From NCBI GenBank assembly GCA_965195285.1, contig CBDAFS010000036.1, positions 1 to 32,000 on the forward strand: DNA of 32,000 nucleotides, given 5' to 3'. Origin of the DNA: an uncultured Aminicenantes bacterium (lineage in GTDB: Bacteria; Acidobacteriota; Aminicenantia; UBA2199). Below, piece after piece: positions 13,779-27,932 of the stretch. The notes beneath the pieces are model-generated. The model made no database searches, had not been told where the DNA came from, and worked only from the letters and a program-made list of their open reading frames with translations. Each line of letters opens with the position of its first letter. The first letter of the stretch is position 1. The position numbers and the translations under genes are program-made.

Positions 13779-16346
13779 ATGAGTGAAAGAAAATCAACTC
13801 AAAAAGATATTTCCACCATCGTGGTTACCGGGGATGTGGCCGTTGACTGGATGGAAGTTCCAATTTCCCCGGCCCCGATATCCCATGACAACAACAATAT
13901 ACTTAACTGGCAGATCATCCGGGGCGTCCGGCAAATTGCCAGGCCAGGCGGTGCCCTGCTGCTGGCTGATTGGATCAGAGCCTTTACGAAAACAAAGGTT
14001 CTGTCCCCTGCCCTGAAAGGGATCGAAGACATCTCCCCTGAAGAGATTCTTCATTCACTGGTCTGCCTGGACCAATTCCCCTTTACTCAAAGCAGCCAGC
14101 AGAATAAGGTATTCAGAGTCAGCCAATTCAAAGGGTATAGCGGAAATCAAAAACAGACACCCGGGCTCATAAAATTGGCCAGTGATGACCCAAAGGCAAA
14201 AATTCTGGTTCTGGATGATTCCGGTAACGGATTCAGGAATGCAGCCGAAAAATTCTGGCCGGCTGCATTAACAGCTGGAAAACCCGACTGGATTATTTTG
14301 AAAATGAGCCACCCCCTGGTACAGGGAAAGTTGTGGAATAAACTGAGCAAGGATTATCCGGATAAAATGATTCTGGTAGTCAGTGCCGATGACTTACGCC
14401 GGCTGGGGGCAAAAATAAGCCGCAAGGTCTCCTGGGAGCGCACCGCCATGGATTTTGTCTGGCAGATGGCTGCCAATTCCAAACTGATTCCCCTGAATCA
14501 ATGTGCCTGCCTGGTGGTCAGATTCGGAGTGGATGGTGCCATTGTGTATTGGAGAAGAGCCGGGAAGGTAGATGCCCGCCTGTTCTATGATCCGGAAATC
14601 GGTGAAGAAGGTTTTTCCGATTATTGCCCGGGTAGAATGATCGGAATAGGTTCGGTTTTTACCGCCTCTCTGGTGGTTCATCTGGCAGAAAACAGCCTTG
14701 ATAATATAATGCCGGGTATTAGCAAGGGAATTCAGGCTTCGAGACGGTTATGGAAACTGGGTTTTGGCAATGACATGGCCCTGCTGAATTATCCGTTTGA
14801 CCGGCTATTCCATAAAAAAGATATTCAGGAAACTCCCATCATGGATGTGAAAATCCCATCATCCTCACATACCAATAACGCTGATCCCCTTTACTGGTGC
14901 ATTCTCCAGGATATTACTGATTTTGGCCTGGAAAAAGCAGCTATCAATCAGGTAATTTACGGAAAAGATTCCTCCCTGGACCGGGTTCCCCGGGGCCAGT
15001 TCCGTAATTTAATAACCGTTGACCGGTCGGAAATCGAAATTCTGTGCAATATTAGGAATCTGATCCGCGAGTACCTGGACAATCCTAAAATAACCCGTCC
15101 CCTGTGTGTAGCCGTTTTCGGCCCTCCGGGATCGGGAAAGTCTTTTGCCGTTACCGAAGTAGCCAAGAGTGTGTCCCCGGAAAAATTAGCCAAAGATCCC
15201 CTGGAATTCAATCTCTCCCAGTTTGATTCCACTTCGGAACTGATCGCTGCTTTTCACCGGGTGAGGGACGTCACCCTGGAAGGTAAAATTCCCATTGTCT
15301 TTTTTGATGAATTTGATACTGCATTGAACGGTAAATTAGGCTGGCTCAAGTATTTTTTAGCCCCCATGCAGGATGGAAAATTTCGGGAAGGAGAAACGGT
15401 TCACCCCATTGGCCGGGCCATCTTTGTATTTGCCGGCGGCACGAGTTCTACCTTTGCGGCTTTCAGCCGGGAAGAAAAAAAAGACCTGCGAGATCAGGAC
15501 AGGCAATTTTTTGTGGATGCCAAGGGGCCTGATTTTGTCAGCCGTTTGCGCGGTTATATCAATGTAAAGGGTCCGGATCCGGTAGATAAAAAGGACAAAC
15601 ACTATCTGATCAGGCGGGCCATTATCATCCGGTTTTTATTAAAGAAAAAAGCGGCTCATATTTTCAATTCCCGGGGGGAATGCCAGATCGACCCCGGGGT
15701 GCTCAGGGCCCTGATCAAGGTCCCGGAATACAAACACGGCATCCGGTCTATTGAAGCCATCATCGAGATGAGCATGCTGTCCGGACGACCCGGATTTGAG
15801 CAGGCTGCCCTTCCCTCACCCGAACAGCTCATCCTTCATGTGGATGCGGATATGTTTACCCGTCTGGTAACCCGGGATGTGATCCTGGGAGGAGCCAGGG
15901 AAGAAATTGCCCGGGCCATCCATGAAGAGTTTTTAGCCAATAACAAAGGAAAAAAAGAATTGAATAAAAAAACCATGGTTCCATGGGACCAACTCACAGA
16001 ACATTATAAGGGATCCAACCTACGGCAGGCCGAAGATATCCCCCGGAAACTCAAGGCCGTGAACTGTGATTTTGCCCCAATCAAAGACAGAAAGCCTAAG
16101 CTTATAACATTTAATAAAAAAGAGTTGCTATTAATGGCCCAGCTGGAACACGAGCGCTGGGTGAAAGAAAAATTCCTCAATGAATGGAGTTACGGAGAGA
16201 AAAAGGATGAAGTCAAAAAAACCCATCCCTACCTGGTGGAGTGGGAAAAGCTCTCGGAAAAGGAAAAACAAAAAGACATCAATGCAGTAGAAGCCATCCC
16301 CCAGCTCCTGGCCAGCATAGGATTTGAAATATACCGGCTCAAATGA
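13779..16346 (+). CDS. Three-module protein: ribokinase/PfkB-like (probably inactive) N-domain, AAA+ ATPase, C-terminal RyR domain
   Basis: An AAGGAGGA SD lies upstream. The N-domain has IVVTGDVAVDW, RPGGALLLADW (GG motif) and MIGIGSVFTASLV in place of DTxGAGDxF. AAA+ Walker A is VFGPPGSGKSF and Walker B is IVFFDEFDTA. The C-terminal AIHEEF...LEHERWVKEKFLNEWSYG..KKTHPYLVEWEKLSEKEKQKDINAV..IGFEIYRLK is paralogous to the end of the 9713 gene. Confidence 0.85.
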   Translation: MSERKSTQKDISTIVVTGDVAVDWMEVPISPAPISHDNNNILNWQIIRGVRQIARPGGALLLADWIRAFTKTKVLSPALKGIEDISPEEILHSLVCLDQFPFTQSSQQNKVFRVSQFKGYSGNQKQTPGLIKLASDDPKAKILVLDDSGNGFRNAAEKFWPAALTAGKPDWIILKMSHPLVQGKLWNKLSKDYPDKMILVVSADDLRRLGAKISRKVSWERTAMDFVWQMAANSKLIPLNQCACLVVRFGVDGAIVYWRRAGKVDARLFYDPEIGEEGFSDYCPGRMIGIGSVFTASLVVHLAENSLDNIMPGISKGIQASRRLWKLGFGNDMALLNYPFDRLFHKKDIQETPIMDVKIPSSSHTNNADPLYWCILQDITDFGLEKAAINQVIYGKDSSLDRVPRGQFRNLITVDRSEIEILCNIRNLIREYLDNPKITRPLCVAVFGPPGSGKSFAVTEVAKSVSPEKLAKDPLEFNLSQFDSTSELIAAFHRVRDVTLEGKIPIVFFDEFDTALNGKLGWLKYFLAPMQDGKFREGETVHPIGRAIFVFAGGTSSTFAAFSREEKKDLRDQDRQFFVDAKGPDFVSRLRGYINVKGPDPVDKKDKHYLIRRAIIIRFLLKKKAAHIFNSRGECQIDPGVLRALIKVPEYKHGIRSIEAIIEMSMLSGRPGFEQAALPSPEQLILHVDADMFTRLVTRDVILGGAREEIARAIHEEFLANNKGKKELNKKTMVPWDQLTEHYKGSNLRQAEDIPRKLKAVNCDFAPIKDRKPKLITFNKKELLLMAQLEHERWVKEKFLNEWSYGEKKDEVKKTHPYLVEWEKLSEKEKQKDINAVEAIPQLLASIGFEIYRLK

Positions 16347-18101: not shown

Positions 18102-20048
18102 ATGAATAATTACCCAAATAAAAAATCGGTCATTGAAACCTTCCAGCGGGCCCTGGATCAATCCTCCTTTGTATTAAAAGAAAATCCCGAACTGACATTC
18201 CCCCAGATTTATAACAGGTTATTTCCCGAAATTGAGAAAAAGGGATTATTGTTGGAGAAATTGGAATCAGGGAAAAACAAATATAGCAAACCTTGGCTTA
18301 GAATATTAACTAAACCAAAAAAAACAAATCCTTTAATCAGAACTTTTTCCGGACACAAAGGGATGATAACAGACTGTGCTTTCAACCCCAAGGGAGACAT
18401 AATTGTTTCCTCTGGTATGGACCGGCAACTGAAGATCTGGGATGTGAAGACTGCTAAAGAGATTTCGACTCTAGGAGGACACAACCACGAAGTAACCGGA
18501 TGTGCATTCAGCCCGGATGGCAAACGCATTGTTTCTTCCAGCAAGGATGGCACCGTGAGGATTTGGGAGGTCGGGACATCCAGGGAAATCATAACCATTG
18601 GAGAAGCGTCCGGCGATCAATTATCCGAGGTAACCTTTATGACCTGCTGCGCCTTCAGTCCGGACGGCCAATACATAGCGGCCGGCGACAGTGAAGGAAA
18701 GATTAAACTATGGGATGCGGACAATAGAGAAATGATTCTCGATTTTCAGGGCCACCGATCATGGATCGTGCAACTGGAATTCAGCCATGACTGGAAGCAG
18801 ATTGCCTCGGCCTCATTTGATAATACGATAAAAGTCTGGGATACCATATCAGGCAGGCAAATTGCTGATTTTAAAGGACATCGGGACTTGAGTGATATAA
18901 CCAATTGGATGTCATTTGCCTTCAGTCCTGATGACAAATGGATCATATCATCAAGTTATGATGATTATAAAATCAGGATCTGGGACAGCAGCACCGGCCG
19001 GGAATTGTATACTCTATTTGGTTCCTTTGATGAACACCCGATATGGCATCATGATCATTCAGGCGAGTTTATTTTTTCCGGAAACAAGGAGGGAAAAATA
19101 ACTGCTTGGAGGACAGATGACCGGGCCAGAAATCATTATGAGGGAATGGAAATAGTTACCGTCAGGGGCCATGAAAAAAATATCACATCGTGTTCCATCA
19201 GCCCGTTAGGCAAATATCTGTTAACCGGGAGTGCCGATACCACCATGAAGTTATGGGATGTGAAAAAACTCGTGGATATTGCTGGCTCAAATTATGAAAA
19301 TGACCTGAAGGAACATTCACAAACAGAAAAATTATCCACTCAAAAAAAACACATTGGTGATGGTGAAGAAGTTGATCAAATCAACGTTGAAGAGTTAATA
19401 AATAATTACCAATTATACAAGGGAAATATCGGAGAAAATACCAGTCGGATCTACAGCCCGGACCGTCGCCTTATTGCTTCTGCCTCTTATCACCTGCGAG
19501 AAAAAAAGAAAGAAATTAAAATACTGGATACTGAAACCGGTGAGGAAATTTTAACCCTTGAAGATTGCACCCCGCATAGGATTTTCTCTTTTTTCTTTCC
19601 ACCCGGGGATGTGGATTTTGGGGTATTTTTACAATATCACAGGATTATCAAAGAATACTTGAGAATTGTGAATCTTTCCTTTAGCCCGGATGGGAATCAT
19701 GTGATTGCCTCCAGCGGTGACAGAACCCTGAATATATGGGAGACAAATAGCGGAAGAGAAATTTTTTCACTTAAGGGACATTTTTTTAAAGAATTTGATT
19801 TCGCCTTTAATCCCGAATTTGAAAAAATGGTGATTATTGAGGATGAAAACCATATTTTCGCTCTTGAAAATTTCAAGAAAGACCCGGCAATTAGCTCAGC
19901 CAAAAAAGAAGCAAATAATTTGTACTATGTATGCCCCTATTGCCAGGTAACAAATCCCATAGAAGAATCATCACTGGACCAGGAAATCACCTGTACTTCC
20001 TGTGGGCAGAAAAATAAGCTAAACCCATTTACCATCAAATTGGATTAA
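18102..20048 (+). CDS. WD40 propeller protein, type-A cassette 1 (conserved head, partly degenerate second half, C-terminal zinc ribbon)
   Basis: Head MNNYPNKKSVIETFQRALDQSSFVLKENPELTFPQIYNR...KPWLRILT..LIRTFSGH. Canonical GH...CAFSPDG...WD repeats in the first half. Tail CPYCQ...CTSCGQKNKLNPFTIKLD. Confidence 0.9.
   Translation: MNNYPNKKSVIETFQRALDQSSFVLKENPELTFPQIYNRLFPEIEKKGLLLEKLESGKNKYSKPWLRILTKPKKTNPLIRTFSGHKGMITDCAFNPKGDIIVSSGMDRQLKIWDVKTAKEISTLGGHNHEVTGCAFSPDGKRIVSSSKDGTVRIWEVGTSREIITIGEASGDQLSEVTFMTCCAFSPDGQYIAAGDSEGKIKLWDADNREMILDFQGHRSWIVQLEFSHDWKQIASASFDNTIKVWDTISGRQIADFKGHRDLSDITNWMSFAFSPDDKWIISSSYDDYKIRIWDSSTGRELYTLFGSFDEHPIWHHDHSGEFIFSGNKEGKITAWRTDDRARNHYEGMEIVTVRGHEKNITSCSISPLGKYLLTGSADTTMKLWDVKKLVDIAGSNYENDLKEHSQTEKLSTQKKHIGDGEEVDQINVEELINNYQLYKGNIGENTSRIYSPDRRLIASASYHLREKKKEIKILDTETGEEILTLEDCTPHRIFSFFFPPGDVDFGVFLQYHRIIKEYLRIVNLSFSPDGNHVIASSGDRTLNIWETNSGREIFSLKGHFFKEFDFAFNPEFEKMVIIEDENHIFALENFKKDPAISSAKKEANNLYYVCPYCQVTNPIEESSLDQEITCTSCGQKNKLNPFTIKLD
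19980..20044 (+). repeat. 65-nt type-A tail block, identical to 24979..25043
   Basis: By hand comparison, caggaaatcacctgtacttcctgtgggcagaaaaataagctaaacccatttaccatcaaattgga is identical in both copies. Confidence 0.9.
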
Positions 20049-20074
20049 GCATGTATAGTCAGTGTTAAAGGACA

Positions 20075-22720
20075 ATGAATAATATTTCAGAAAAAAGAAA
20101 TGTGATCGAAACCTTCCAGCGAGCCCTGGATCAGTCTGCTTTTGTCCTCAAAGAAAATCCCGAACTCACCTTCCTCCAGATCTACAACCGCGCCCAGTGG
20201 AAAACAGAAAAAAATAAATTATTAAAGAATATACTTGATAGAGAAGAAATTAAATTCAAAAAACCCTGGTTAAAACTTATTAGCAGACCCGCAGAAAGTT
20301 CAGCTTATATACGCACTCTCACTGGCCACACTGGGTCTGTAAATGCATGTAAATTCAGTCCAGATGGTAAAAAGATTGTTTCAGCTAGCAATGATAAAAC
20401 TTTAAAAATCTGGGATGTTGAGACTGGGAAAGAGATAACTACTCTAAGAGGCCATACCAGTAGTGTGGAGGATTGTGCTTTTAGTCCTGATGGGAAAAAA
20501 ATTATCTCACGGAGTTATGGGAACACCCTCAAAATATGGGATGCAGAGACTGGAGGATTGATTACTCTGGCATGGCACACTATTGGGCTAAGCACTGGTG
20601 ACGTTTCCCTGGACAACAAAAAAATAGTCTCAGAAAATGAGTTTTTATCTGGTTTAAATTTCGGGGAAGACGAACCCGAAACTCACATGCTATTGGATGC
20701 TGAGACAGGAGAAGAATTAGCCACACTCTCAGACCACGGTAATATTGTGAATTCCTGTGGTTTCAGCCCCGATGGGGAAAAAATTATCACAGGGAGTAGA
20801 GATAACGCCCTCAAGCTGTGGAATTCAGAGACCGGTCGGAAGATTGCATCATTGTCAGGGCATACTGGTTCAGTAAACACCTGTGCCTTTAGTTCAGATG
20901 GGAAGCGTATTGTCTCTGCAAGCTTTGACAGGACTCTTAAAATCTGGAATGCTGAGAATGGCAGAGAACTTTTTACACTCAAAGGTCATAATTGTTCTGT
21001 GATTGCATGTGCTTTCAGCCCGTATGGCACTCGAATATTATCTGAAGATTCACAGAAGACAATCATACTTTGGGATGCTGAGAATGGACACAAAATAGCT
21101 ACCCTCCAAGTAGGTTATGCTGGATATGAAAATCGACCAAGATTAAAATACATCCCTCTCGTACATGCCTTTAGTTCTGATAATAGGCATTTGATTTTTG
21201 CAAGAGATTTTGACAAATCCCTAGAACTGAGGGATGCTAAATCCGGTAAAATGATTGCTACATTGATAGGGCATCCTGATGATGTTTACACCTGTGCATT
21301 TTCCCCGGATAGCAAAAAAATTGTTTCAGGAAGTAATGGTTTGAATAACAACCTCAAGCTGTGGGATACCAAGACAGGAGAAGAAATAGCCACACTCTCA
21401 GGCCACAATTGTTTTGTGAATTGCTGTGCATTTAGCCCTGATGGGAGATGTATTGTCTCTGCAAGCGATGATAAAACTCTTAAAATTTGGGATGCTGAAT
21501 CAAGAGAAGAATTAAGTCTCCCTGTGTGCCATACTAATATTGTGAATTCCTGTGCATTCAGCCCTGATGGGAGACGTATTGTCTCTTCAAGCGATGATAA
21601 AACTCTTAAGCTATGGGATGCTGGGACCGGTGAGGAACTGAGCACTCTCACAGGTCATCCCGACGTTGTGCAAGCCTGTGCTTTCAGTCCTGATGGTAGA
21701 CGAATTTTTTCTGGAGGTAGATCCCAATTTCATCTTGACCCAAATGATATAAAAAACGTAACAAAGCTCTGGGATACAGAAACAGAGATTGACATAAAGA
21801 CTTTCGAAAGTTTTCATGGCTACTTAAGAGCCTGTGCATTCAGTCCCGATGGAAAGTATATTGTTTCTGCTGGTAATACAATGGACTTAAATTTATGGGA
21901 TGCTGAAGCTGGATATGAAACAGACATACTCTCCGGTCATGGTCATTTGGTTAATGGATGTATTTTTAGTCCTGATGGTAGTTATGTGGTTTCTGCAAGT
22001 AATGACAGATCTCTCAAGATCTGGCTTACTGAGACTATTAAGGAGCTTCACACGCTCACAGGTCACCCTGATGTGGTGAATTCCTGTGCTATTTCACCTG
22101 ACGGTAAAAAAATCGTCTCAGGAAGCAATGGTTTTAATAACAACCTCAAGCTGTGGAATACCAAGTCAGGAGAGGAACTGTCCACCCTAGAAGGTCATAC
22201 TGATGATGTAAACGCCTGTACTTTTAGTCCTGATAGTAAGCATATTATCTCTGCAAGCAGAGATAAAACCCTCAAACTCTGGGATGTAAGAACTGGAAAA
22301 GAACTAACTAATCTTAAAGGATATACTTCTGCGGTGAATGCCTGTGCTTTGAGTCCTGATGGAAGACATATTGTTTTAGGGGATCATATGGGATGTATCC
22401 TCCTTCTTTCCATTGAAAATGTTAAGCATTTCATTCCTTATGTAACTTCTGTACGAATAAAGATTTTTGGAAAAAATATTTTTTGGGAAAATAATATCAA
22501 AACAACCTGTAAGTTGTGTGGTAAACGTTTTCCGGTTTCGGATGACATTCTTGATTTGATAAGATCCATTAACCGGAATGCCGGAATCACGCCTGACCAA
22601 TCTCCCTGTCTCAATCTTCCAGACGAAGCCTGGGATGATCCGGTATTGATATCCGAATGTCCCCTCTGTCATAAACCATTAAAATTTAATCCATTTATTG
22701 TGGATAATAAAGATAAATAA
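20075..22720 (+). CDS. WD40 double-propeller protein, type-B cassette 1 (about 14-15 repeats, C-terminal Cys-rich tail)
   Basis: Head MNNISEKRNVIETFQRALDQSAFVLKENPELTFLQIYNRAQW...KPWLKLISRP..YIRTLTGH. Many GHxxxVxxCAFSPDGxxIVSxSxDKTLKxWD units. Tail CKLCGKRFPVSDDILDLIRSINRNAGITPDQSPC...CPLCHKPLKFNPFIVD. Confidence 0.92.
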   Translation: MNNISEKRNVIETFQRALDQSAFVLKENPELTFLQIYNRAQWKTEKNKLLKNILDREEIKFKKPWLKLISRPAESSAYIRTLTGHTGSVNACKFSPDGKKIVSASNDKTLKIWDVETGKEITTLRGHTSSVEDCAFSPDGKKIISRSYGNTLKIWDAETGGLITLAWHTIGLSTGDVSLDNKKIVSENEFLSGLNFGEDEPETHMLLDAETGEELATLSDHGNIVNSCGFSPDGEKIITGSRDNALKLWNSETGRKIASLSGHTGSVNTCAFSSDGKRIVSASFDRTLKIWNAENGRELFTLKGHNCSVIACAFSPYGTRILSEDSQKTIILWDAENGHKIATLQVGYAGYENRPRLKYIPLVHAFSSDNRHLIFARDFDKSLELRDAKSGKMIATLIGHPDDVYTCAFSPDSKKIVSGSNGLNNNLKLWDTKTGEEIATLSGHNCFVNCCAFSPDGRCIVSASDDKTLKIWDAESREELSLPVCHTNIVNSCAFSPDGRRIVSSSDDKTLKLWDAGTGEELSTLTGHPDVVQACAFSPDGRRIFSGGRSQFHLDPNDIKNVTKLWDTETEIDIKTFESFHGYLRACAFSPDGKYIVSAGNTMDLNLWDAEAGYETDILSGHGHLVNGCIFSPDGSYVVSASNDRSLKIWLTETIKELHTLTGHPDVVNSCAISPDGKKIVSGSNGFNNNLKLWNTKSGEELSTLEGHTDDVNACTFSPDSKHIISASRDKTLKLWDVRTGKELTNLKGYTSAVNACALSPDGRHIVLGDHMGCILLLSIENVKHFIPYVTSVRIKIFGKNIFWENNIKTTCKLCGKRFPVSDDILDLIRSINRNAGITPDQSPCLNLPDEAWDDPVLISECPLCHKPLKFNPFIVDNKDK
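22532..22611 (+). repeat. 80-nt type-B tail block matching 27550..27629 with one mismatch (the first 59 nt are identical)
   Basis: By hand comparison, ccggtttcggatgacattcttgatttgataagatccattaaccggaatgccggaatcac is identical in both. A single g/t difference follows, then 20 more identical nt. Confidence 0.9.
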
Positions 22721-22767
22721 CAACGATGAAAATTAATTTAAAAATCAAATTAATTGAAAAAATATAA

Positions 22768-25047
22768 ATGGATAATTACCCAAATAAAAAATCGGTCATT
22801 GAAACTTTCCAGCGAGCCCTGGATCAATCCGCTTTTGTTTTAAAAGAAAATCCCGAACTCACCTTCCCCCAGATCTACAACCGCGCCCAGGTTCACTTCG
22901 AGGAAAATCCCTTATTGAAAACTGTAGTTCAGGAAGCGGAAAAAAAATTTATAAGACCCTGGTTTTTTATTTCAACCCCTGCCAGAGAGAGCACCGGTTA
23001 CATCCGGTCCTTCGAGGGCCACACCCGGCAGGTAAGATCCTGCGCTTTCAGTCCGGATGGAAAAAAAATTGTATCTGTAAGCTGGGATAAAACCCTCAGA
23101 ATATGGAATACCGAAACCGGAGAAGAACTCAACACCCTGATGGGTCATACCCTGAGGGTAATGGACTGCGATTTCAGCCCGGACGGCAAACTCATTGTCT
23201 CCTGCAGCATGGACAGGACCATCAGGTTGTGGGATTCACACACCGGAAACGAACTCAAGGTGCTGGATGACCAGGACCGATCGATTCGGGCCTGCGCCTT
23301 TGGTCCGAACAGCAGAGACCTACTGACGGCTGCTTCCGGCAATGAGTTCAGCCTCTGGGACATTTCATCCGGAAAGATCATTCTCACTTTTAAAGGTCAT
23401 ACAGATAGAGTTGCTGACTTTGACTTCAGCCCGGATGGGAATCGTATCGTATCGGCCAGCCATGACAAAACCCTCAAAATATGGGACAAAAATACCGGAA
23501 AGGAATTGCACAGCCTGATTGGTCATTCCGATACAGTCACATCCTGTGCCTACCGATCTGACGGGAAACAGATTGTGTCCGCCAGCAGGGATAAAACCGT
23601 CAGAACCTGGAATGCGCTGACCGGTTCCGAGCTCCTGGTCATCACCGCTCATGTGGATGAAGTCACCACCTGTACTTTTGACCCCGAAGGGTCACAAATT
23701 TTGTCCGGCAGCAAGGACACGACCCTCAAACTCTGGGATGCCCGATCCGGTAAAGAACTTTCAACTTTTCAGGGACATTTTTTCAGTGTGGACACCTGCG
23801 CTTTCAACCCTGATGGCAATTATATTCTGTCGGGAAGCGGGGACCGAACTCTGAGACTCTGGAAAGGAGATAAAAAAAGTGAAGAATCAATAACTGCCGG
23901 GGGACATACCAAAAGGGTGAACGTCTGTTCCCTCAGCCCTGACAACAAATATCTCGTAACCGGAAGCCGGGACAAAACCCTCAAGATTTGGGATGTCCAT
24001 TCCGGAGAGGAACTGGCTACCCTGAAAGGACATATCGGGGAGATACGACTTTGTCAATTCAGACCGGACGTTAAAACCTTTGTCTCGGCAGATGATTCCG
24101 TATTCAAACTCTGGGAGGCAGAGCCCGGGGAACTGCGACTCCAATTCGAAGGTTACGATGTAAACATACACCATTTTGACTTCAATTTAAACGGAACCGT
24201 CATGGTTTCTTCAAGTAACGATCATTCCCCGAAACTCTGGAATGCAGAAAATGGACAGGTCATTAAAACCTTTGAGGGCCACAATCAAATTGTATACTTC
24301 TGCTTATTCACCCCGGACAACAAAAAGATTCTTTCAGCAAGCGCTGATAAGACCATTAAGATCTGGGATGTTAAAACCGGTCGGGAACTCAAAACCCTTA
24401 CCGGGCACAACAGCGGAGTTAAGGATTGTTTTCTCAGCCCTGACAGTACGCAAATCATTTCCAGAGATTATGATGATGTTGTTAAGATATGGAATTTTAT
24501 TGAGGGGAAGGAATTGAAAAGCTATTCAGGACACTTAATTGGGGCGTTCAGCCCGGACAGCCGGTTTATTGCCCTGGGAGATACTCACCATGCCATCCGA
24601 ATCCTGGATGCACGAACCTTTGAAACGCTTTTCATCCTCCGCGGTCACAAAGATGATATCAGTGAATTCAAATTCAGTCCCAATGCCAGGTATCTTTTTT
24701 CATCCGATTTTGACCGCGCCATCCGGGTCTGGGATTTGAAAACAGGAGAGCAGTGTGCTGCTTTCAGGGGACATTCTGCCTGGATATCCTGTTTTGCCAT
24801 GACGTCTGATGAAGAAAAAATCGTGATTGGAGACAGTTCGGGCCGGGTGATATTCACCACCCTGAAAAATATTGATTTTGGACCGGCCATTGTCACGGCC
24901 TACCAGGAATCCGATCAGTTGTTCTTTTTCTGCAAATACTGCAATAAAAAAAATACTATTCCGGAATCCTCCACGAGTCAGGAAATCACCTGTACTTCCT
25001 GTGGGCAGAAAAATAAGCTAAACCCATTTACCATCAAATTGGACTAA
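22768..25047 (+). CDS. WD40 double-propeller protein, type-A cassette 2 (about 14 repeats, zinc-ribbon tail)
   Basis: Head MDNYPNKKSVIETFQRALDQSAFVLKENPELTFPQIYNRAQ...RPWFFISTP..YIRSFEGH. WD40 repeats throughout. Tail CKYCNKKN...CTSCGQKNKLNPFTIKLD. Confidence 0.92.
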   Translation: MDNYPNKKSVIETFQRALDQSAFVLKENPELTFPQIYNRAQVHFEENPLLKTVVQEAEKKFIRPWFFISTPARESTGYIRSFEGHTRQVRSCAFSPDGKKIVSVSWDKTLRIWNTETGEELNTLMGHTLRVMDCDFSPDGKLIVSCSMDRTIRLWDSHTGNELKVLDDQDRSIRACAFGPNSRDLLTAASGNEFSLWDISSGKIILTFKGHTDRVADFDFSPDGNRIVSASHDKTLKIWDKNTGKELHSLIGHSDTVTSCAYRSDGKQIVSASRDKTVRTWNALTGSELLVITAHVDEVTTCTFDPEGSQILSGSKDTTLKLWDARSGKELSTFQGHFFSVDTCAFNPDGNYILSGSGDRTLRLWKGDKKSEESITAGGHTKRVNVCSLSPDNKYLVTGSRDKTLKIWDVHSGEELATLKGHIGEIRLCQFRPDVKTFVSADDSVFKLWEAEPGELRLQFEGYDVNIHHFDFNLNGTVMVSSSNDHSPKLWNAENGQVIKTFEGHNQIVYFCLFTPDNKKILSASADKTIKIWDVKTGRELKTLTGHNSGVKDCFLSPDSTQIISRDYDDVVKIWNFIEGKELKSYSGHLIGAFSPDSRFIALGDTHHAIRILDARTFETLFILRGHKDDISEFKFSPNARYLFSSDFDRAIRVWDLKTGEQCAAFRGHSAWISCFAMTSDEEKIVIGDSSGRVIFTTLKNIDFGPAIVTAYQESDQLFFFCKYCNKKNTIPESSTSQEITCTSCGQKNKLNPFTIKLD
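24979..25043 (+). repeat. 65-nt type-A tail block, identical to 19980..20044
   Basis: Same evidence as for the partner copy. Confidence 0.9.
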
Positions 25048-25074
25048 GTATGGATATTTGATGTTTAATGAACA

Positions 25075-27738
25075 ATGAATAATATTTCAGAAAAAAGAAT
25101 AGTGATCGAAACCTTCCAGCGGGCACTGGACCAATCGGCTTTTGTCCTCAAGGAAAACCCAGAACTCACCTTCCCCCAGGTTTACAATCGGGCTCAGTGG
25201 AAAAGAGATAAAAACGAATTACTCAAAAATAAACTCGATTCAGAAGAAAAAAAATTTAAAAAGCCTTGGTTTAAAATTTTAACCAGACCCATAGAAAACG
25301 TTGCTCTTGTTCGTACATTTACCGGGCATACTGATTTCATTAGATTATGTGCCTTTAGCAATGACGGGAAGCGCATTGTATCTACAAGTGAAGATATGAT
25401 GATCATTCTCTGGAATACTGAAACTGGCGAGATTATTAGAATTCTTGATAAATTATACGACGCAAAACCTTTATGTGAATTTAGTCCGGATGGAAAACTC
25501 CTTGTCTCTACAAGCAATAAGAATACCTTAAAAATCTGGGATTCAGTAAATGGATCAGAGATAAAAACTCTTTCAGGTCATAAAGGAAGGCTAACAGCCT
25601 GCTCATTCAATCCGAACGGAAAATATATTATATCTGCAAGTGAAGATGAAACTCTTAAAATCTGGGATACCAAAACTGGAAAAGAATATAAAACTCTTAA
25701 GGGACACGGAAGTACAGTGACCAATTTTGCACTCAGTCAAGATGGAATGTTTATTGTCTCTTCAAGTCTGGATAAAACCCTGAAGCTATGGAATCTAAAA
25801 ACTGGAGAGGAAATTAGAGTTTTTTCAGGTCATAATCATTGGATAGAAGCATGCAAATTAAGCCCTGACATGAAGCGCATTATATCTATAAGCTATTTAC
25901 ATAATGGACGGAATACATTGAAATTGTGGGATGTCAAAACCGTAAAGGAAATCACCGAGCTAAAGGGGCACAGTAATAAAGTTGCAGCCTGTAACTTCAA
26001 CCTTGATGGTAGTCTTATTATCTCTGCAAGTAGTGATAGCGTCCTAAAAATATGGAATTCAAAGGACGGTCAAGAGATCAAAACCCTTAAAGGACATACT
26101 GATAGTGTTTATACTTTTGCATTCAGTCCTGATGGGAAACATATCGTATCTGCAAGTGAAGATAAGACTCTAAAGATATGGAATATAGAAAGTTGTGAGG
26201 AAGTCACTACCTTGAGGGGTCATGCTGAATTTGTATATGCCTGTTCTTTCAGTGCTGACGGGAGATATATTATTTCTGGAAGTGGAGATCATACCTTAAA
26301 ACTCTGGGATGTAAACTCCGCAATTGATATTAAATATCATGAAGGGCATACCAATGAGGTAAATGATTGTGAATTCAGTTATGACAATCATCATATCATC
26401 TCGGCTAGCAATGATAAAACCCTGAAACTTTGGGATGTTGAATCTGGGCAGGAGATCAACACTGTAAAAGGACACACTGAAGCTGTTAAAGCCTGTGTTT
26501 TTAGCCCGAATGGAAAAAAATTTTTTTCAGTTAGTGAAGATAAAAAAATCAAGATATGGAATGCCGAAAGTGGTATGGAACTTGACATGCTCGAAGGTCA
26601 CACCGAGAAGATTTATTGCTGTGCATTGAGTCCTGATGGCAGGAGAATTGTCTCTGGCGGTGGATTATTTGATTATGAAAAACCGGCATTTGGTGAATTA
26701 AAGCTGTGGGATACGGAGTCCAAAAATGAGCTTAGAACCCTCAAAGGACACACAGAACCAGTAAATATCTGTTCATTTAGTCCAGATGGAAAACATATTG
26801 TATCTGGAAGTAATGATAAAACCCTAAGGATATGGGAATCCCAGACCGGCGAAGAGATCAGCCGCTTTGAAGGTCATACCGGACATATAAGTGCCTGCGT
26901 TTTCAGCCCGGATGGCAGGCACATTGTCTCAACTGGGGGAGTTTATGACGGAAACCTTCGTATTTGGGACATTAAGACTGGGAATGAAATAATTTCTGGT
27001 TACGGGCATAGGTATGGCGTACATACATGTGATATCAGTCCAAACGGCAGGTTTTTCGTATCTTCAGGTGGAGATCAGACAATCAAATTATGGGAAGCCA
27101 AAACAGGTAGGAATGTCAATGATCTTAAAACTCACATTCAATGGGTGGGGACCTGCTCATTCAGCCCAGATGGAAAATATCTTATTGCAGCAAGCGACAG
27201 ATACAATGCCCAAAGATTTCATTCATCAAAACTTATCTCAATCTCAGCTGATACAATGAAACTTTGGAATATAAAAACAGGGATTGATAATATTACCCTT
27301 AAGGGTCATACGGGCCGTGTAAGGGTATGTAAATTCAGTCCTAGTGGAAGACGAATAGTTATTGCTGATAAATCAGGCCAAGTTTTAATCATTTCTATAG
27401 AAAATTTTGAAATATCAGTTCCAATTGTCACAGCGGTTCGACTAATACTTTTTAAGCCTATTGGGATATTTTGTAGGGCAATCACAAGAAACAGACAATA
27501 TTGGGATGAAAACATCACAGCAGTCTGTCTTTGGTGTGGGAAGCGGTTCCCGGTTTCGGATGACATTCTTGATTTGATAAGATCCATTAACCGGAATGCC
27601 GGAATCACTCCTGACCAATCTCCCTGTCTTCATCTCCCAGACGACGCCTGGGGAGAACCCAGACTTATTTCAAAATGTCCCCTCTGCCATAAACCCTTAA
27701 AATTTAATCCTTTTATCGTGGATAATCGGGATAAATAA
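25075..27738 (+). CDS. WD40 double-propeller protein, type-B cassette 2 (about 15 repeats, Cys-rich tail)
   Basis: Head MNNISEKRIVIETFQRALDQSAFVLKENPELTFPQVYNRAQW...KPWFKILTRP..LVRTFTGH. WD40 repeats throughout. Tail CLWCGKRFPVSDDILDLIRSINRNAGITPDQSPC...CPLCHKPLKFNPFIVD. Confidence 0.92.
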   Translation: MNNISEKRIVIETFQRALDQSAFVLKENPELTFPQVYNRAQWKRDKNELLKNKLDSEEKKFKKPWFKILTRPIENVALVRTFTGHTDFIRLCAFSNDGKRIVSTSEDMMIILWNTETGEIIRILDKLYDAKPLCEFSPDGKLLVSTSNKNTLKIWDSVNGSEIKTLSGHKGRLTACSFNPNGKYIISASEDETLKIWDTKTGKEYKTLKGHGSTVTNFALSQDGMFIVSSSLDKTLKLWNLKTGEEIRVFSGHNHWIEACKLSPDMKRIISISYLHNGRNTLKLWDVKTVKEITELKGHSNKVAACNFNLDGSLIISASSDSVLKIWNSKDGQEIKTLKGHTDSVYTFAFSPDGKHIVSASEDKTLKIWNIESCEEVTTLRGHAEFVYACSFSADGRYIISGSGDHTLKLWDVNSAIDIKYHEGHTNEVNDCEFSYDNHHIISASNDKTLKLWDVESGQEINTVKGHTEAVKACVFSPNGKKFFSVSEDKKIKIWNAESGMELDMLEGHTEKIYCCALSPDGRRIVSGGGLFDYEKPAFGELKLWDTESKNELRTLKGHTEPVNICSFSPDGKHIVSGSNDKTLRIWESQTGEEISRFEGHTGHISACVFSPDGRHIVSTGGVYDGNLRIWDIKTGNEIISGYGHRYGVHTCDISPNGRFFVSSGGDQTIKLWEAKTGRNVNDLKTHIQWVGTCSFSPDGKYLIAASDRYNAQRFHSSKLISISADTMKLWNIKTGIDNITLKGHTGRVRVCKFSPSGRRIVIADKSGQVLIISIENFEISVPIVTAVRLILFKPIGIFCRAITRNRQYWDENITAVCLWCGKRFPVSDDILDLIRSINRNAGITPDQSPCLHLPDDAWGEPRLISKCPLCHKPLKFNPFIVDNRDK
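27550..27629 (+). repeat. 80-nt type-B tail block matching 22532..22611
   Basis: Same evidence as for the partner copy. Confidence 0.9.
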
Positions 27739-27755: not shown

Positions 27756-27932
27756 ATGAATAATTTAACAGCTAAGAGATCAGTTCTGGAAACCTTCCAG
27801 AGGGCACTGGATCAATCCACCTTTGTGTTGAAGGAAGAACCGGGGCTCACTTTTCCCCAAATTTATAACAGAGCTCAATGGAAGACTGATAAAAATATAT
27901 TATTAAAACAAAAACTTGCTAAAATATTATGA
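27756..27932 (+). pseudogene. Head-only remnant (58 codons) of a fifth WD40 cassette
   Basis: Reads MNNLTAKRSVLETFQRALDQSTFVLKEEPGLTFPQIYNRAQWKTDKNILLKQKLAKIL, then TGA at 27930..27932. It is homologous to the first ~55 codons of the four cassettes and ends before the PW...GH linker and any WD repeat. It falls below the ORF-track length cut-off. Confidence 0.65.

Follow-up and report, generated by a model that had tools for sequence, protein, structure and literature searches.

A sensor-less NACHT gene and a downstream array of four WD40 genes suggest a split TEP1/NWD1-like STAND system in an uncultured Aminicenantes bacterium

Four WD40 genes with similar ends and divergent cores

The stretch of DNA analysed here, called the window below, comprises 32,000 nucleotides from an uncultured Aminicenantes bacterium (GTDB lineage Bacteria; Acidobacteriota; Aminicenantia; UBA2199; GenBank assembly GCA_965195285.1, contig CBDAFS010000036.1, positions 1 to 32,000 of the forward strand). 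It carries a run of plus-strand genes in which a gene coding for a NACHT-type STAND protein devoid of sensor repeats, which we call the hub, is followed about 8.5 kb downstream by an array of four genes, A1, B1, A2 and B2, all coding for WD40 proteins (Pfam). The original prediction described these four genes as two alternating types of sensor cassette with homogenised ends and diverged repeat cores. The hub and the array are laid out as follows:

7209-29685, + strand: unbroken gene run
7209-9560, + strand: hub, a sensor-less STAND protein of 783 amino acids with DUF4062 (TIR-like NADase fold), NACHT and an NWD1-type winged helix, no repeats
18102-20048, + strand: sensor A1, 648 amino acids; head, about 10 recognisable WD40 blades, short zinc-ribbon tail (type A)
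20075-22720, + strand: sensor B1, 881 amino acids; head, 15 blades, long zinc-ribbon tail (type B)
22768-25047, + strand: sensor A2, 759 amino acids; head, two propellers (15 blades), type A tail
25075-27738, + strand: sensor B2, 887 amino acids; head, 16 blades, type B tail

The four sensor genes are full length, each with its own ATG, share one transcription direction and are separated by gaps of 14-47 nucleotides. A promoter and terminator scan gives no enrichment and no terminators between them, which fits co-transcription and proves nothing, and an Rfam search of the window found nothing. The TEP-1 propeller models of Pfam match the sensors; the head corresponds to no Pfam model and the tails give only sub-threshold zinc-ribbon matches in that database. 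Head residues 10-40 are common to all four genes, and the distinction between the A and B head types is confined to about 8 codons. Both tail types are zinc ribbons of the form CxxC...CxxC...NPF, type B being distinguished by an insert of roughly 35 residues. The second propeller of A1 (residues ~390-520) is degenerate and includes a charged non-WD insert, and this gene may be decaying or differently built.

The AlphaFold2 model of A2 (pLDDT 89.8, pTM 0.79) has helices at residues 7-27, 29-43 and 48-60, followed by a strand (65-68) and by two propellers with their boundary at 367-383, in which the repeat hidden Markov model counts 15 blades; residues 707-757 form a beta-ribbon tail. Globally, the PDB structure that fits this model best is that of Apaf-1 in the active apoptosome (3j2t_A and 5juy_A; TMq 0.70, root-mean-square deviation 4.7 Å over ~695 columns), and in sequence the end of the head together with blade 1 aligns to Apaf-1 residues 581-650. 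All the sensors have the same three parts: a head of three helices with the strand that opens the propeller, tandem WD40 propellers resembling those of Apaf-1, and a zinc ribbon at the C-terminus.

A sliding-window comparison (Nei-Gojobori) along the four genes is far from uniform: the cores share 20-55% amino-acid identity with saturated synonymous divergence (dS), and the ends share 80-97%, so that the observation of ends much more alike than cores stands. The nucleotide counts given by the original prediction for the A tails, the B tails and the B starts are all correct. The A tails match exactly over 65 nucleotides (68/69 overall), positions 22532-22611 and 27550-27629 of the B tails match at 79/80, and the first 25 nucleotides of B1 and B2 are identical. 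The description of the termini as almost identical holds for these tracts and is overstated beyond them, the B heads and B tails being 82.5% and 83.6% identical over about 230 nucleotides; likewise, the quoted heads and tails are present, except that A2 starts with MDNYPNKK and not with MNNY. The same 24 nucleotides, ATGAATAATATTTCAGAAAAAAGA, occur at 9553, 20075 and 25075.

Metagenome and genome collections were scanned for the head motif, which yielded 26 loci that were annotated against the window's own domains; these and further loci are designated here by L numbers. In L034 and L035, the third codon of the B-type start is GAT instead of AAT. Gene conversion was assessed by counting, among codons that specify the same amino acid in two genes, the fraction that use the same codon, with a Fisher test. 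In the A1/A2 pair this fraction is 28/36 in the head, 94/187 in the core and 21/22 in the last 23 codons (p=0.002 for the head and 2e-5 for the tail); in the B1/B2 pair it is 25/36, 129/303 and 46/62 for head, core and tail (p=0.002 and 4e-6); in the A2/B1 pair, whose tail types differ, it is 25/32 in the head and 92/229 in the core. Every compared paralogue head and tail is significantly above its own core. The comparison of A2 with its L001 orthologue gives 28/36 in the head, 483/568 in the core and 13/20 in the tail: here conservation of the ends does not exceed that of the core, and in the tail it is lower. Within the window the A tails agree at 68/72 nucleotides, against 61/72 between A2 and the L001 orthologue. 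An excess of identical codons at the ends of paralogues that is absent from orthologues is the pattern expected of gene conversion within a genome, and the homogenised ends proposed by the original prediction are upheld. Conversion is clear only for two tracts:

19980-20048, + strand: conversion tract in the A tails, partner 24979-25047, 68/69 nucleotides identical
22532-22611, + strand: conversion tract in the B tails, partner 27550-27629, 79/80 nucleotides identical, dS 0.16-0.32 against the saturated dS of the core

For the heads the case for conversion is weaker, as the identity between paralogues (89%) equals that between orthologues (90%), and conversion is not separable from selection at the nucleotide level. 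Over all loci, head amino-acid identity is 72% within one locus and 57% between loci. Other multi-sensor loci are devoid of the extreme contrast between ends and core. These figures bear on a view in which the four genes are independent paralogues of a WD40 scaffold, whose ends are kept only by purifying selection on a folding or zinc-binding element, with no link to NACHT and no conversion. The equal conservation of the head in paralogues and orthologues, the ends of L021 and L031, which are not much more alike than their cores, and the abundance of generic WD40 proteins all favour it: a homologue search with the whole of A2 is flooded by thousands of them, and head or tail appears in only 7 of 120 matches. 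The A tails speak against it, since neither their closer agreement within the genome than with the orthologue nor an orthologue tail lying below its core is predicted by purifying selection alone. With the evidence on the head given in the next section, we regard this scaffold view as unlikely.

The tandem duplication of an A+B pair, which the original prediction proposed as the origin of the array, does not survive the comparison of the cores. The distinction between the A and B types is limited to the first 8 codons and the tail, and the A-to-B spacers can be aligned at about 17/26 positions; the cores do not sort by type. Core amino-acid identity is 42% for B1-B2, 42% for B1-A2, 41% for B2-A2, 34.5% for A1-A2, 36% for A1-B1 and 36% for A1-B2, and A2 alone has an orthologue in related strains. 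Both tail types are widespread in other loci, in fused as well as in free proteins. The sensor next to the NACHT gene in L035 combines a B-type start, MNDISEKRE, with an A-type end, ...CGEKNKLNPFVINLD, which means that the type of the head is not tied to that of the tail. An A-B-A-B pattern created by misassembly was considered and rejected, the cores being only 35-42% identical.

The claim of a binding surface diversified on the top face of the propeller also fails, on the evidence of a single orthologue pair. The most variable blade columns in all four proteins are the three residues that follow the GH dipeptide (GH+1 to +3), the pair of residues following the conserved Val and the one that precedes the Asp of the B-C turn, which is the generic WD40 pattern and nothing specific. 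Between A2 and its 85% identical L001 orthologue, substitutions affect 9/42 positions in the GH+1 to +3 columns and 3/26 in the D-1 and D+1 columns, against about 14% overall, and the most changed columns belong to the C-D loop and to the surroundings of the residue after the Trp; the top face is not enriched. Propeller 1 of this pair is nearly invariant (93-100% identity, dS 0.03-0.18) and propeller 2 is 65-85% identical. The ratio of nonsynonymous to synonymous divergence (dN/dS) is 0.26, against 0.15-0.21 for the neighbouring genes, which indicates that A2 is under purifying selection and is a functional gene. The WD repeats are only 60-77% identical to one another in DNA, and the idea of highly conserved internal repeats was rejected on that ground. 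As for hypermutation of the diversity-generating retroelement type, the window contains no reverse transcriptase.

The head and the split between the NACHT and WD40 halves

The identity of the head is best understood from the hub. In Pfam, the hub matches DUF4062 (3.3e-13), NACHT (5.8e-9), AAA_16 (9e-13), nSTAND1 (5e-8) and HTH_NWD1 (2.5e-7); its Walker A motif is GNPGSGKS, and its DUF4062 domain matches the TIR-like domain of TEP1 in the PDB (11gz_A, 4e-15). DUF4062 has been reported as a TIR-like NADase acting in phage defence and in TEP1 (bioRxiv 10.64898/2026.05.01.722283). The sensor carried on the same chain, which is canonical in the TEP1/NWD1 family, is absent: the hub has no repeats and the sensors are separate open reading frames (ORFs), and for this reason the system is classed as a split variant and not as a canonical member of that family.

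The shared head spans about 75 residues, and in fused homologues it sits between the DUF4062-NACHT ATPase and the WD40 propellers. In L004, L009, L010, L011, L012, L020 and L026 it is internal, beginning within ~6 residues after the DUF4062-NACHT part and followed by WD40 repeats and a type A or B tail, all in one polypeptide. Aligned, these fused proteins read ...TLTDxEFLEQK...LLDDYRTAL..MPQEDEV...SVIQAFSKALDQxSFVLKENPELTFPQLYNRLQW...KRPWLRL...LIRTFxGH, and the free-standing sensor genes begin ~8 residues ahead of VIETFQRALDQ. The C-terminus of the hub, ...DYRTALDKFPHE / ...EDYRTALDKFPHE, each followed by the stop, lies at the homologous ...DYRTAL..P.E position of the junction alignment, at the exact point where the fused homologues run on into the head. 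Since the head is the segment that joins NACHT to WD40 and the hub stops precisely there, the four genes are very probably the detached C-terminal sensor halves of a TEP1/NWD1-like NLR that has been split in two.

The original prediction called the conserved ends docking ends. For the head this now has a clear rationale, as it corresponds to the NACHT-proximal linker of the fused homologues. The tail has no such rationale: it is a zinc ribbon, it also occurs in fused proteins, and further domains sometimes follow it. The same facts about the head weigh against the scaffold view set out above, since the head is confined to this family, where it equals the NACHT-proximal segment of fused proteins, and it is genomically linked to NACHT in most loci, the same NACHT being fused or adjacent in 12 of the 18 head-selected loci of at least 6 kb. 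Close relatives of the head are few, and several of them are head-only ORFs of 49-65 amino acids.

Most relatives of both halves are also split, and the split form is real and common. Homologues of the hub number 1,377 with E<1e-30, and most of the best 120 are proteins of 770-830 amino acids without repeats, a few being fused to WD40 or to TPR; among these best 120, the named homologues are metagenome-assembled genomes (MAGs) of Aminicenantes, Acidobacteriota and Deltaproteobacteria, the nearest being a Candidatus Aminicenantes MAG. On the sensor side, the head profile retrieved 241 clusters from 1.84 billion representative proteins, and among the best 150 of the 241 the head begins at one of the first ~55 residues in ~139, an internal position at ~780-940 being seen in only 5. 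In six loci (the window, L034, L035, L028, L029 and L003) the ATG of a sensor overlaps the stop of NACHT by 8 nucleotides, ATGA(A/G)T(A/G)A, after a conserved ...KFPHE and stop, an arrangement characteristic of two genes whose translation is coupled.

This distribution has a direct bearing on whether the locus could be a decaying NLR island, in which frameshifts or deletions broke a once-fused gene and left four genes with no present role. At least three remnants in the window (9553-9660, 27756-27932 and 28818-28859, described below) point that way, as do the partial degeneracy of A1 and an A2-like gene in L035 that looks disrupted. Against this stand the split form being the majority across hundreds of clusters from independent projects, the overlapping start and stop conserved in the six loci, four uninterrupted ORFs of 648-887 codons, the purifying selection on A2 and a structural model of A2 that is confident throughout. 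We consider such an island very improbable.

Turnover of the sensors and a model for the split system

A cluster look-up places members of the window NACHT with at least 90% identity on two contigs from JGI, and the three loci, with NACHT 91-97% identical, carry different sensor sets, in agreement with the expectation of the original prediction that the repertoire varies between close strains. Their gene orders are:

Window: NACHT, 35-codon remnant, TrkA_N-RyR, ClpA/B-like, AAA-RyR, MshEN-TIR, A1, B1, A2, B2, head-only ORF, 249-amino-acid unknown, Metallophos
Ga0366824_1000192 (L034 + L001): 1836-amino-acid sensor, NACHT, 35-codon mini-ORF, TrkA_N-RyR, ClpA/B-like, AAA-RyR, TIR, MshEN-TIR, A2 orthologue, head-only ORF, fused NACHT-WD40-tail B protein, Metallophos
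Ga0466255_055895 (L035): NACHT, intact overlapping 803-amino-acid sensor, TrkA_N-RyR, ClpA/B-like, AAA-RyR, head-only ORF, A2-like fragment at the contig end

A2 is the only sensor kept in the related strains, as the 85% orthologue in L001 and an 84% fragment in L035. No orthologue of A1, B1 or B2 was found in L001, L034 or L035, their best matches being 34-50% identical: 34-35% for A1, and 50% between B1 and the proximal sensor of L035, its best outside match, to which both B1 and B2 are closest. The array is therefore a shifting collection in which A2 is old and shared, and, as far as the available relatives show, A1, B1 and B2 occur in this genome alone.

Two side observations concern Ga0366824_1000192. 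At 10165-15456, L001 codes for a second, fused DUF4062-NACHT-WD40-tail B protein of 1763 amino acids, whose C-terminus carries an HPr-like segment; the NACHT part of this protein shares only 61% identity with the sensor-less hub, and the head inside it has diverged strongly. The 1836-amino-acid free-standing sensor upstream of the hub in L034 (4428-9938) carries ~1000 residues of HEAT-like repeats after its type A zinc ribbon, so that the tail is not always the C-terminus.

The window also holds remnants of further sensors, which the original prediction had missed together with the link to the sensor-less NACHT gene upstream:

9553-9660, + strand: collapsed proximal sensor, a 35-codon mini-ORF, MNNISEKRSIISEHETICSVYGEKHKLNPFVINLD and stop; B-type head start joined to an A-type tail end
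27756-27932, + strand: head-only ORF of 58 amino acids directly after B2, remnant of a fifth sensor, 73-76% to the head (blastp/tblastn)
28818-28859, + strand: what may be left of the end of a type A tail, LNKLNPSTIKID and stop, with the stop placed as in A1 and A2; weak (tblastn within the window, E=0.05)

The last of these lies just upstream of the metallophosphoesterase gene. The ATG of the mini-ORF overlaps the NACHT stop by 8 nucleotides, and its second CxxC is broken. The mini-ORF is also present in L034 (12345-12452), with its CxxC intact, and L035 holds the intact 803-amino-acid sensor at the same place; the mini-ORF is thus a deletion derivative of the proximal sensor, common to the window and L034. 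Head-only ORFs similar to that of the window (47-65 amino acids) are found in L001, L005, L007, L019, L028 and L035, and could be deletion scars or small proteins competing for the docking site on the hub. ORFs of 169-175 amino acids in which head and type A tail are separated by at most one blade occur in L032/L033 (12377-12886) and in L005 (8983-9510); they represent either independent propeller collapse or small proteins in their own right. The recurrence of collapsed sensors, head plus tail or head only, in L005, L007, L019, L028 and L032/L033 indicates a sensor family prone to deletion and recombination between repeats and ends.

The B-type starts (9553-9580, 20075-20100 and 25075-25100) carry the run GAAAAAAG, which in the NACHT frame reads A_AAA_AAG 9 nucleotides after the stop. 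A +1 frameshift at the 8-nucleotide overlap would fuse hub and sensor in frame; with the A-rich run lying after the stop, such a frameshift is no more than a remote possibility.

Could the array be a store of donor cassettes? In systems such as the hsdS shufflons and the orphan modules of Rhs/CdiA, a common machine is paired with arrayed modules that offer alternative specificities and share conserved end sequences, and recombination leaves fragments behind. By analogy with these and with pilS/pilE and vls, the four genes would be donors for recombinational switching, copied or moved by way of head and tail into the slot next to NACHT, which would be coupled to a single sensor at any one time. 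The mini-ORF in that slot joins a head start, with the 24 nucleotides common to the B1 and B2 starts, to a tail end; conversion tracts are found at both ends of the sensors, sensor content differs between close strains, and collapsed ORFs recur in many loci. As an expression site, the mini-ORF nevertheless has a diverged A-type tail end and a decayed look. It is alike in two strains, its changes between the window and L034 are mostly non-synonymous, and the window copy has lost one zinc-binding Cys, which looks like a shared old deletion rather than a landing pad in use. An ordinary intact gene occupies this slot in L035 and L028. The cassettes of hsdS and Rhs/CdiA are usually partial or silent and need a recombinase or homology with an expressed gene, whereas the window copies are complete, separately startable ORFs lying in one direction, and the window has no recombinase, reverse transcriptase or inverted repeats (only two trivial palindromes). 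Switching of this kind seems to us quite improbable.

The model we prefer is that of a split, NLR-like STAND system of the TEP1/NWD1 type, in which the four genes code for sensor subunits that are paralogous and free-standing, and we hold it to be probable as a whole. Through its head, each sensor would dock in trans onto the one NACHT hub and thereby complete the helical linker. The binding of a ligand to the propeller would release the hub, which would oligomerise and turn on the NADase activity of DUF4062. The neighbouring TIR, RyR and ClpA/B-like proteins would possibly be accessory regulators or effectors, and the presence of several sensors for one hub would widen the range of what can be recognised. 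Judged by itself, the action of the sensors on the hub in trans is somewhat likely. Conversion of the heads would keep all sensors compatible with the one hub. We extend this model, tentatively and as something short of probable, to a modular bacterial NLR network in which one hub is completed in trans by any of several sensors through the three-helix head, head conversion keeps new sensors plug-compatible, and sets of sensors are swapped between strains by recombination of their ends. The cluster as a whole would be a conflict or defence system.

Several points weigh against this model. Four other genes separate the hub from the sensors. The adjacent sensor of the hub is dead and the hub could be decaying too, yet the hub is an intact ORF with orthologues 91-97% identical. 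A1, with its degenerate second propeller, may be on its way out. Same-codon use in the heads is 69-78% in paralogues and 78% in orthologues, and the heads may be held by selection on nucleotides or on the translation start, and not by conversion. The defence role is drawn from domain content and from weak PADLOC matches of neighbouring genes, the hub itself giving only a weak match to STAND_TPR (1.6e-4) and no confident match in PADLOC 2.0. Finally, all the sequences are metagenome contigs of uncultured bacteria, and the proposal is a genomic one.

Among known systems, the nearest are the STAND proteins TEP1, NWD1 and NWD2 (DUF4062-NACHT-helical-WD40; NACHT clade 16 of Kibby et al.), with which the window shares the order DUF4062 TIR-like domain, NACHT, NWD1-type winged helix, helical linker and WD40. 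In the window, unlike in these proteins, the break in the chain falls after the winged-helix region and before the linker, four intact copies of the sensor half are present beside remnants, each intact copy ending in a zinc ribbon, and there is no TROVE or vWA domain. The Apaf-1 apoptosome has a similar tandem WD40 propeller sensor after a helical domain, and the logic of a propeller ligand that releases the NTPase would be the same; it differs in being a single chain with NB-ARC instead of NACHT, a CARD effector and one sensor. In NAIP-NLRC4 and in the sensor/helper NLR networks of plants, paralogous sensors, often in tandem, feed one executor, and repertoires vary between strains, every sensor being a complete NLR with its own NTPase. 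The sensors of the window are without NTPase and would complete a single hub.

Avs and bNACHT proteins are likewise STAND NTPases of prokaryotes, with an effector at the N-terminus and, at the C-terminus, a repeat sensor by which phage proteins are recognised; the characterised examples differ in being single polypeptides, mostly with TPR-like sensors, so that their sensor and ATPase parts evolve jointly. The bNACHT genes are only rarely in operons (Kibby et al.), and a 2026 Nature survey notes WD40 sensors, touching on these and on split proteins in passing. Fungal HET-E/D/R and NWD proteins share with the window the combination of NACHT and WD40 recognition modules, concerted evolution and a variable repertoire. 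The fungal repeats are nearly identical and shuffled, with positive selection on the top face; those of the window have diverged as given above, are homogenised at the gene ends only and show no top-face enrichment. No description of a split DUF4062-NACHT system with an array of WD40 genes was found in the literature searched, in an incomplete library.

If the model is true, this locus would be a prokaryotic counterpart of the NAIP/NLRC4 or plant sensor-helper networks, assembled from half-proteins, and the recognition and signalling halves of an NLR would be separable and recombinable in nature. It would also offer a simple system in which to study how a sensor holds NACHT off and then releases it, as the halves can be expressed separately, and it would bear on the eukaryotic relatives TEP1 and NWD1, whose WD40 ligands are unknown. 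Immune diversification would proceed here by gain, loss and end-conversion of whole sensor genes, and not by point changes on the binding face.

Neighbouring genes

The remaining genes of the cluster, and the gene that follows it, are:

9713-11509, + strand: TrkA_N + RyR protein (Pfam), accessory; 93% identical orthologues in L034 and L035
11555-13744, + strand: ClpA/B-like double AAA+ ATPase; Pfam AAA_2 3e-49; PADLOC PDC-M37B 6e-33, DolB 5e-29
13779-16346, + strand: AAA + RyR protein, accessory; Pfam RyR 1e-16; orthologues in L001 and L035, relatives in L011, L019 and L028
16324-18087, + strand: MshEN + TIR_2 protein, candidate effector or regulator; Pfam MshEN 1e-22, TIR_2 1e-17; PADLOC ThsB-like
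27948-28697, + strand: 249-amino-acid protein of unknown family; no Pfam or PADLOC match; absent from the syntenic L001
28870-29685, + strand: calcineurin-like metallophosphoesterase, last conserved gene of the cluster; Pfam 2e-16; PADLOC PDC-S10 1.6e-13
29904-31964, - strand: 686-amino-acid protein; no Pfam or PADLOC match

The metallophosphoesterase has an 87% orthologue in L001 and is also present in L008 and L013. The ClpA/B-like gene is a recurrent neighbour of this NACHT/WD40 family (L002, L010, L011, L016, L020, L021 and L035), and ClpA/B-like and/or RyR homologues lie beside the family in these same loci and in L028. In the window, the ClpA/B-like ATPase is flanked by the TrkA_N-RyR and AAA-RyR proteins, whose RyR ends share 41% identity. 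In the protein encoded directly upstream of A1, MshEN, of the c-di-GMP-binding type, is joined to TIR_2 through a middle region of ~280 amino acids; this arrangement is kept in L001/L034, and the protein could be a TIR effector gated by a second messenger.

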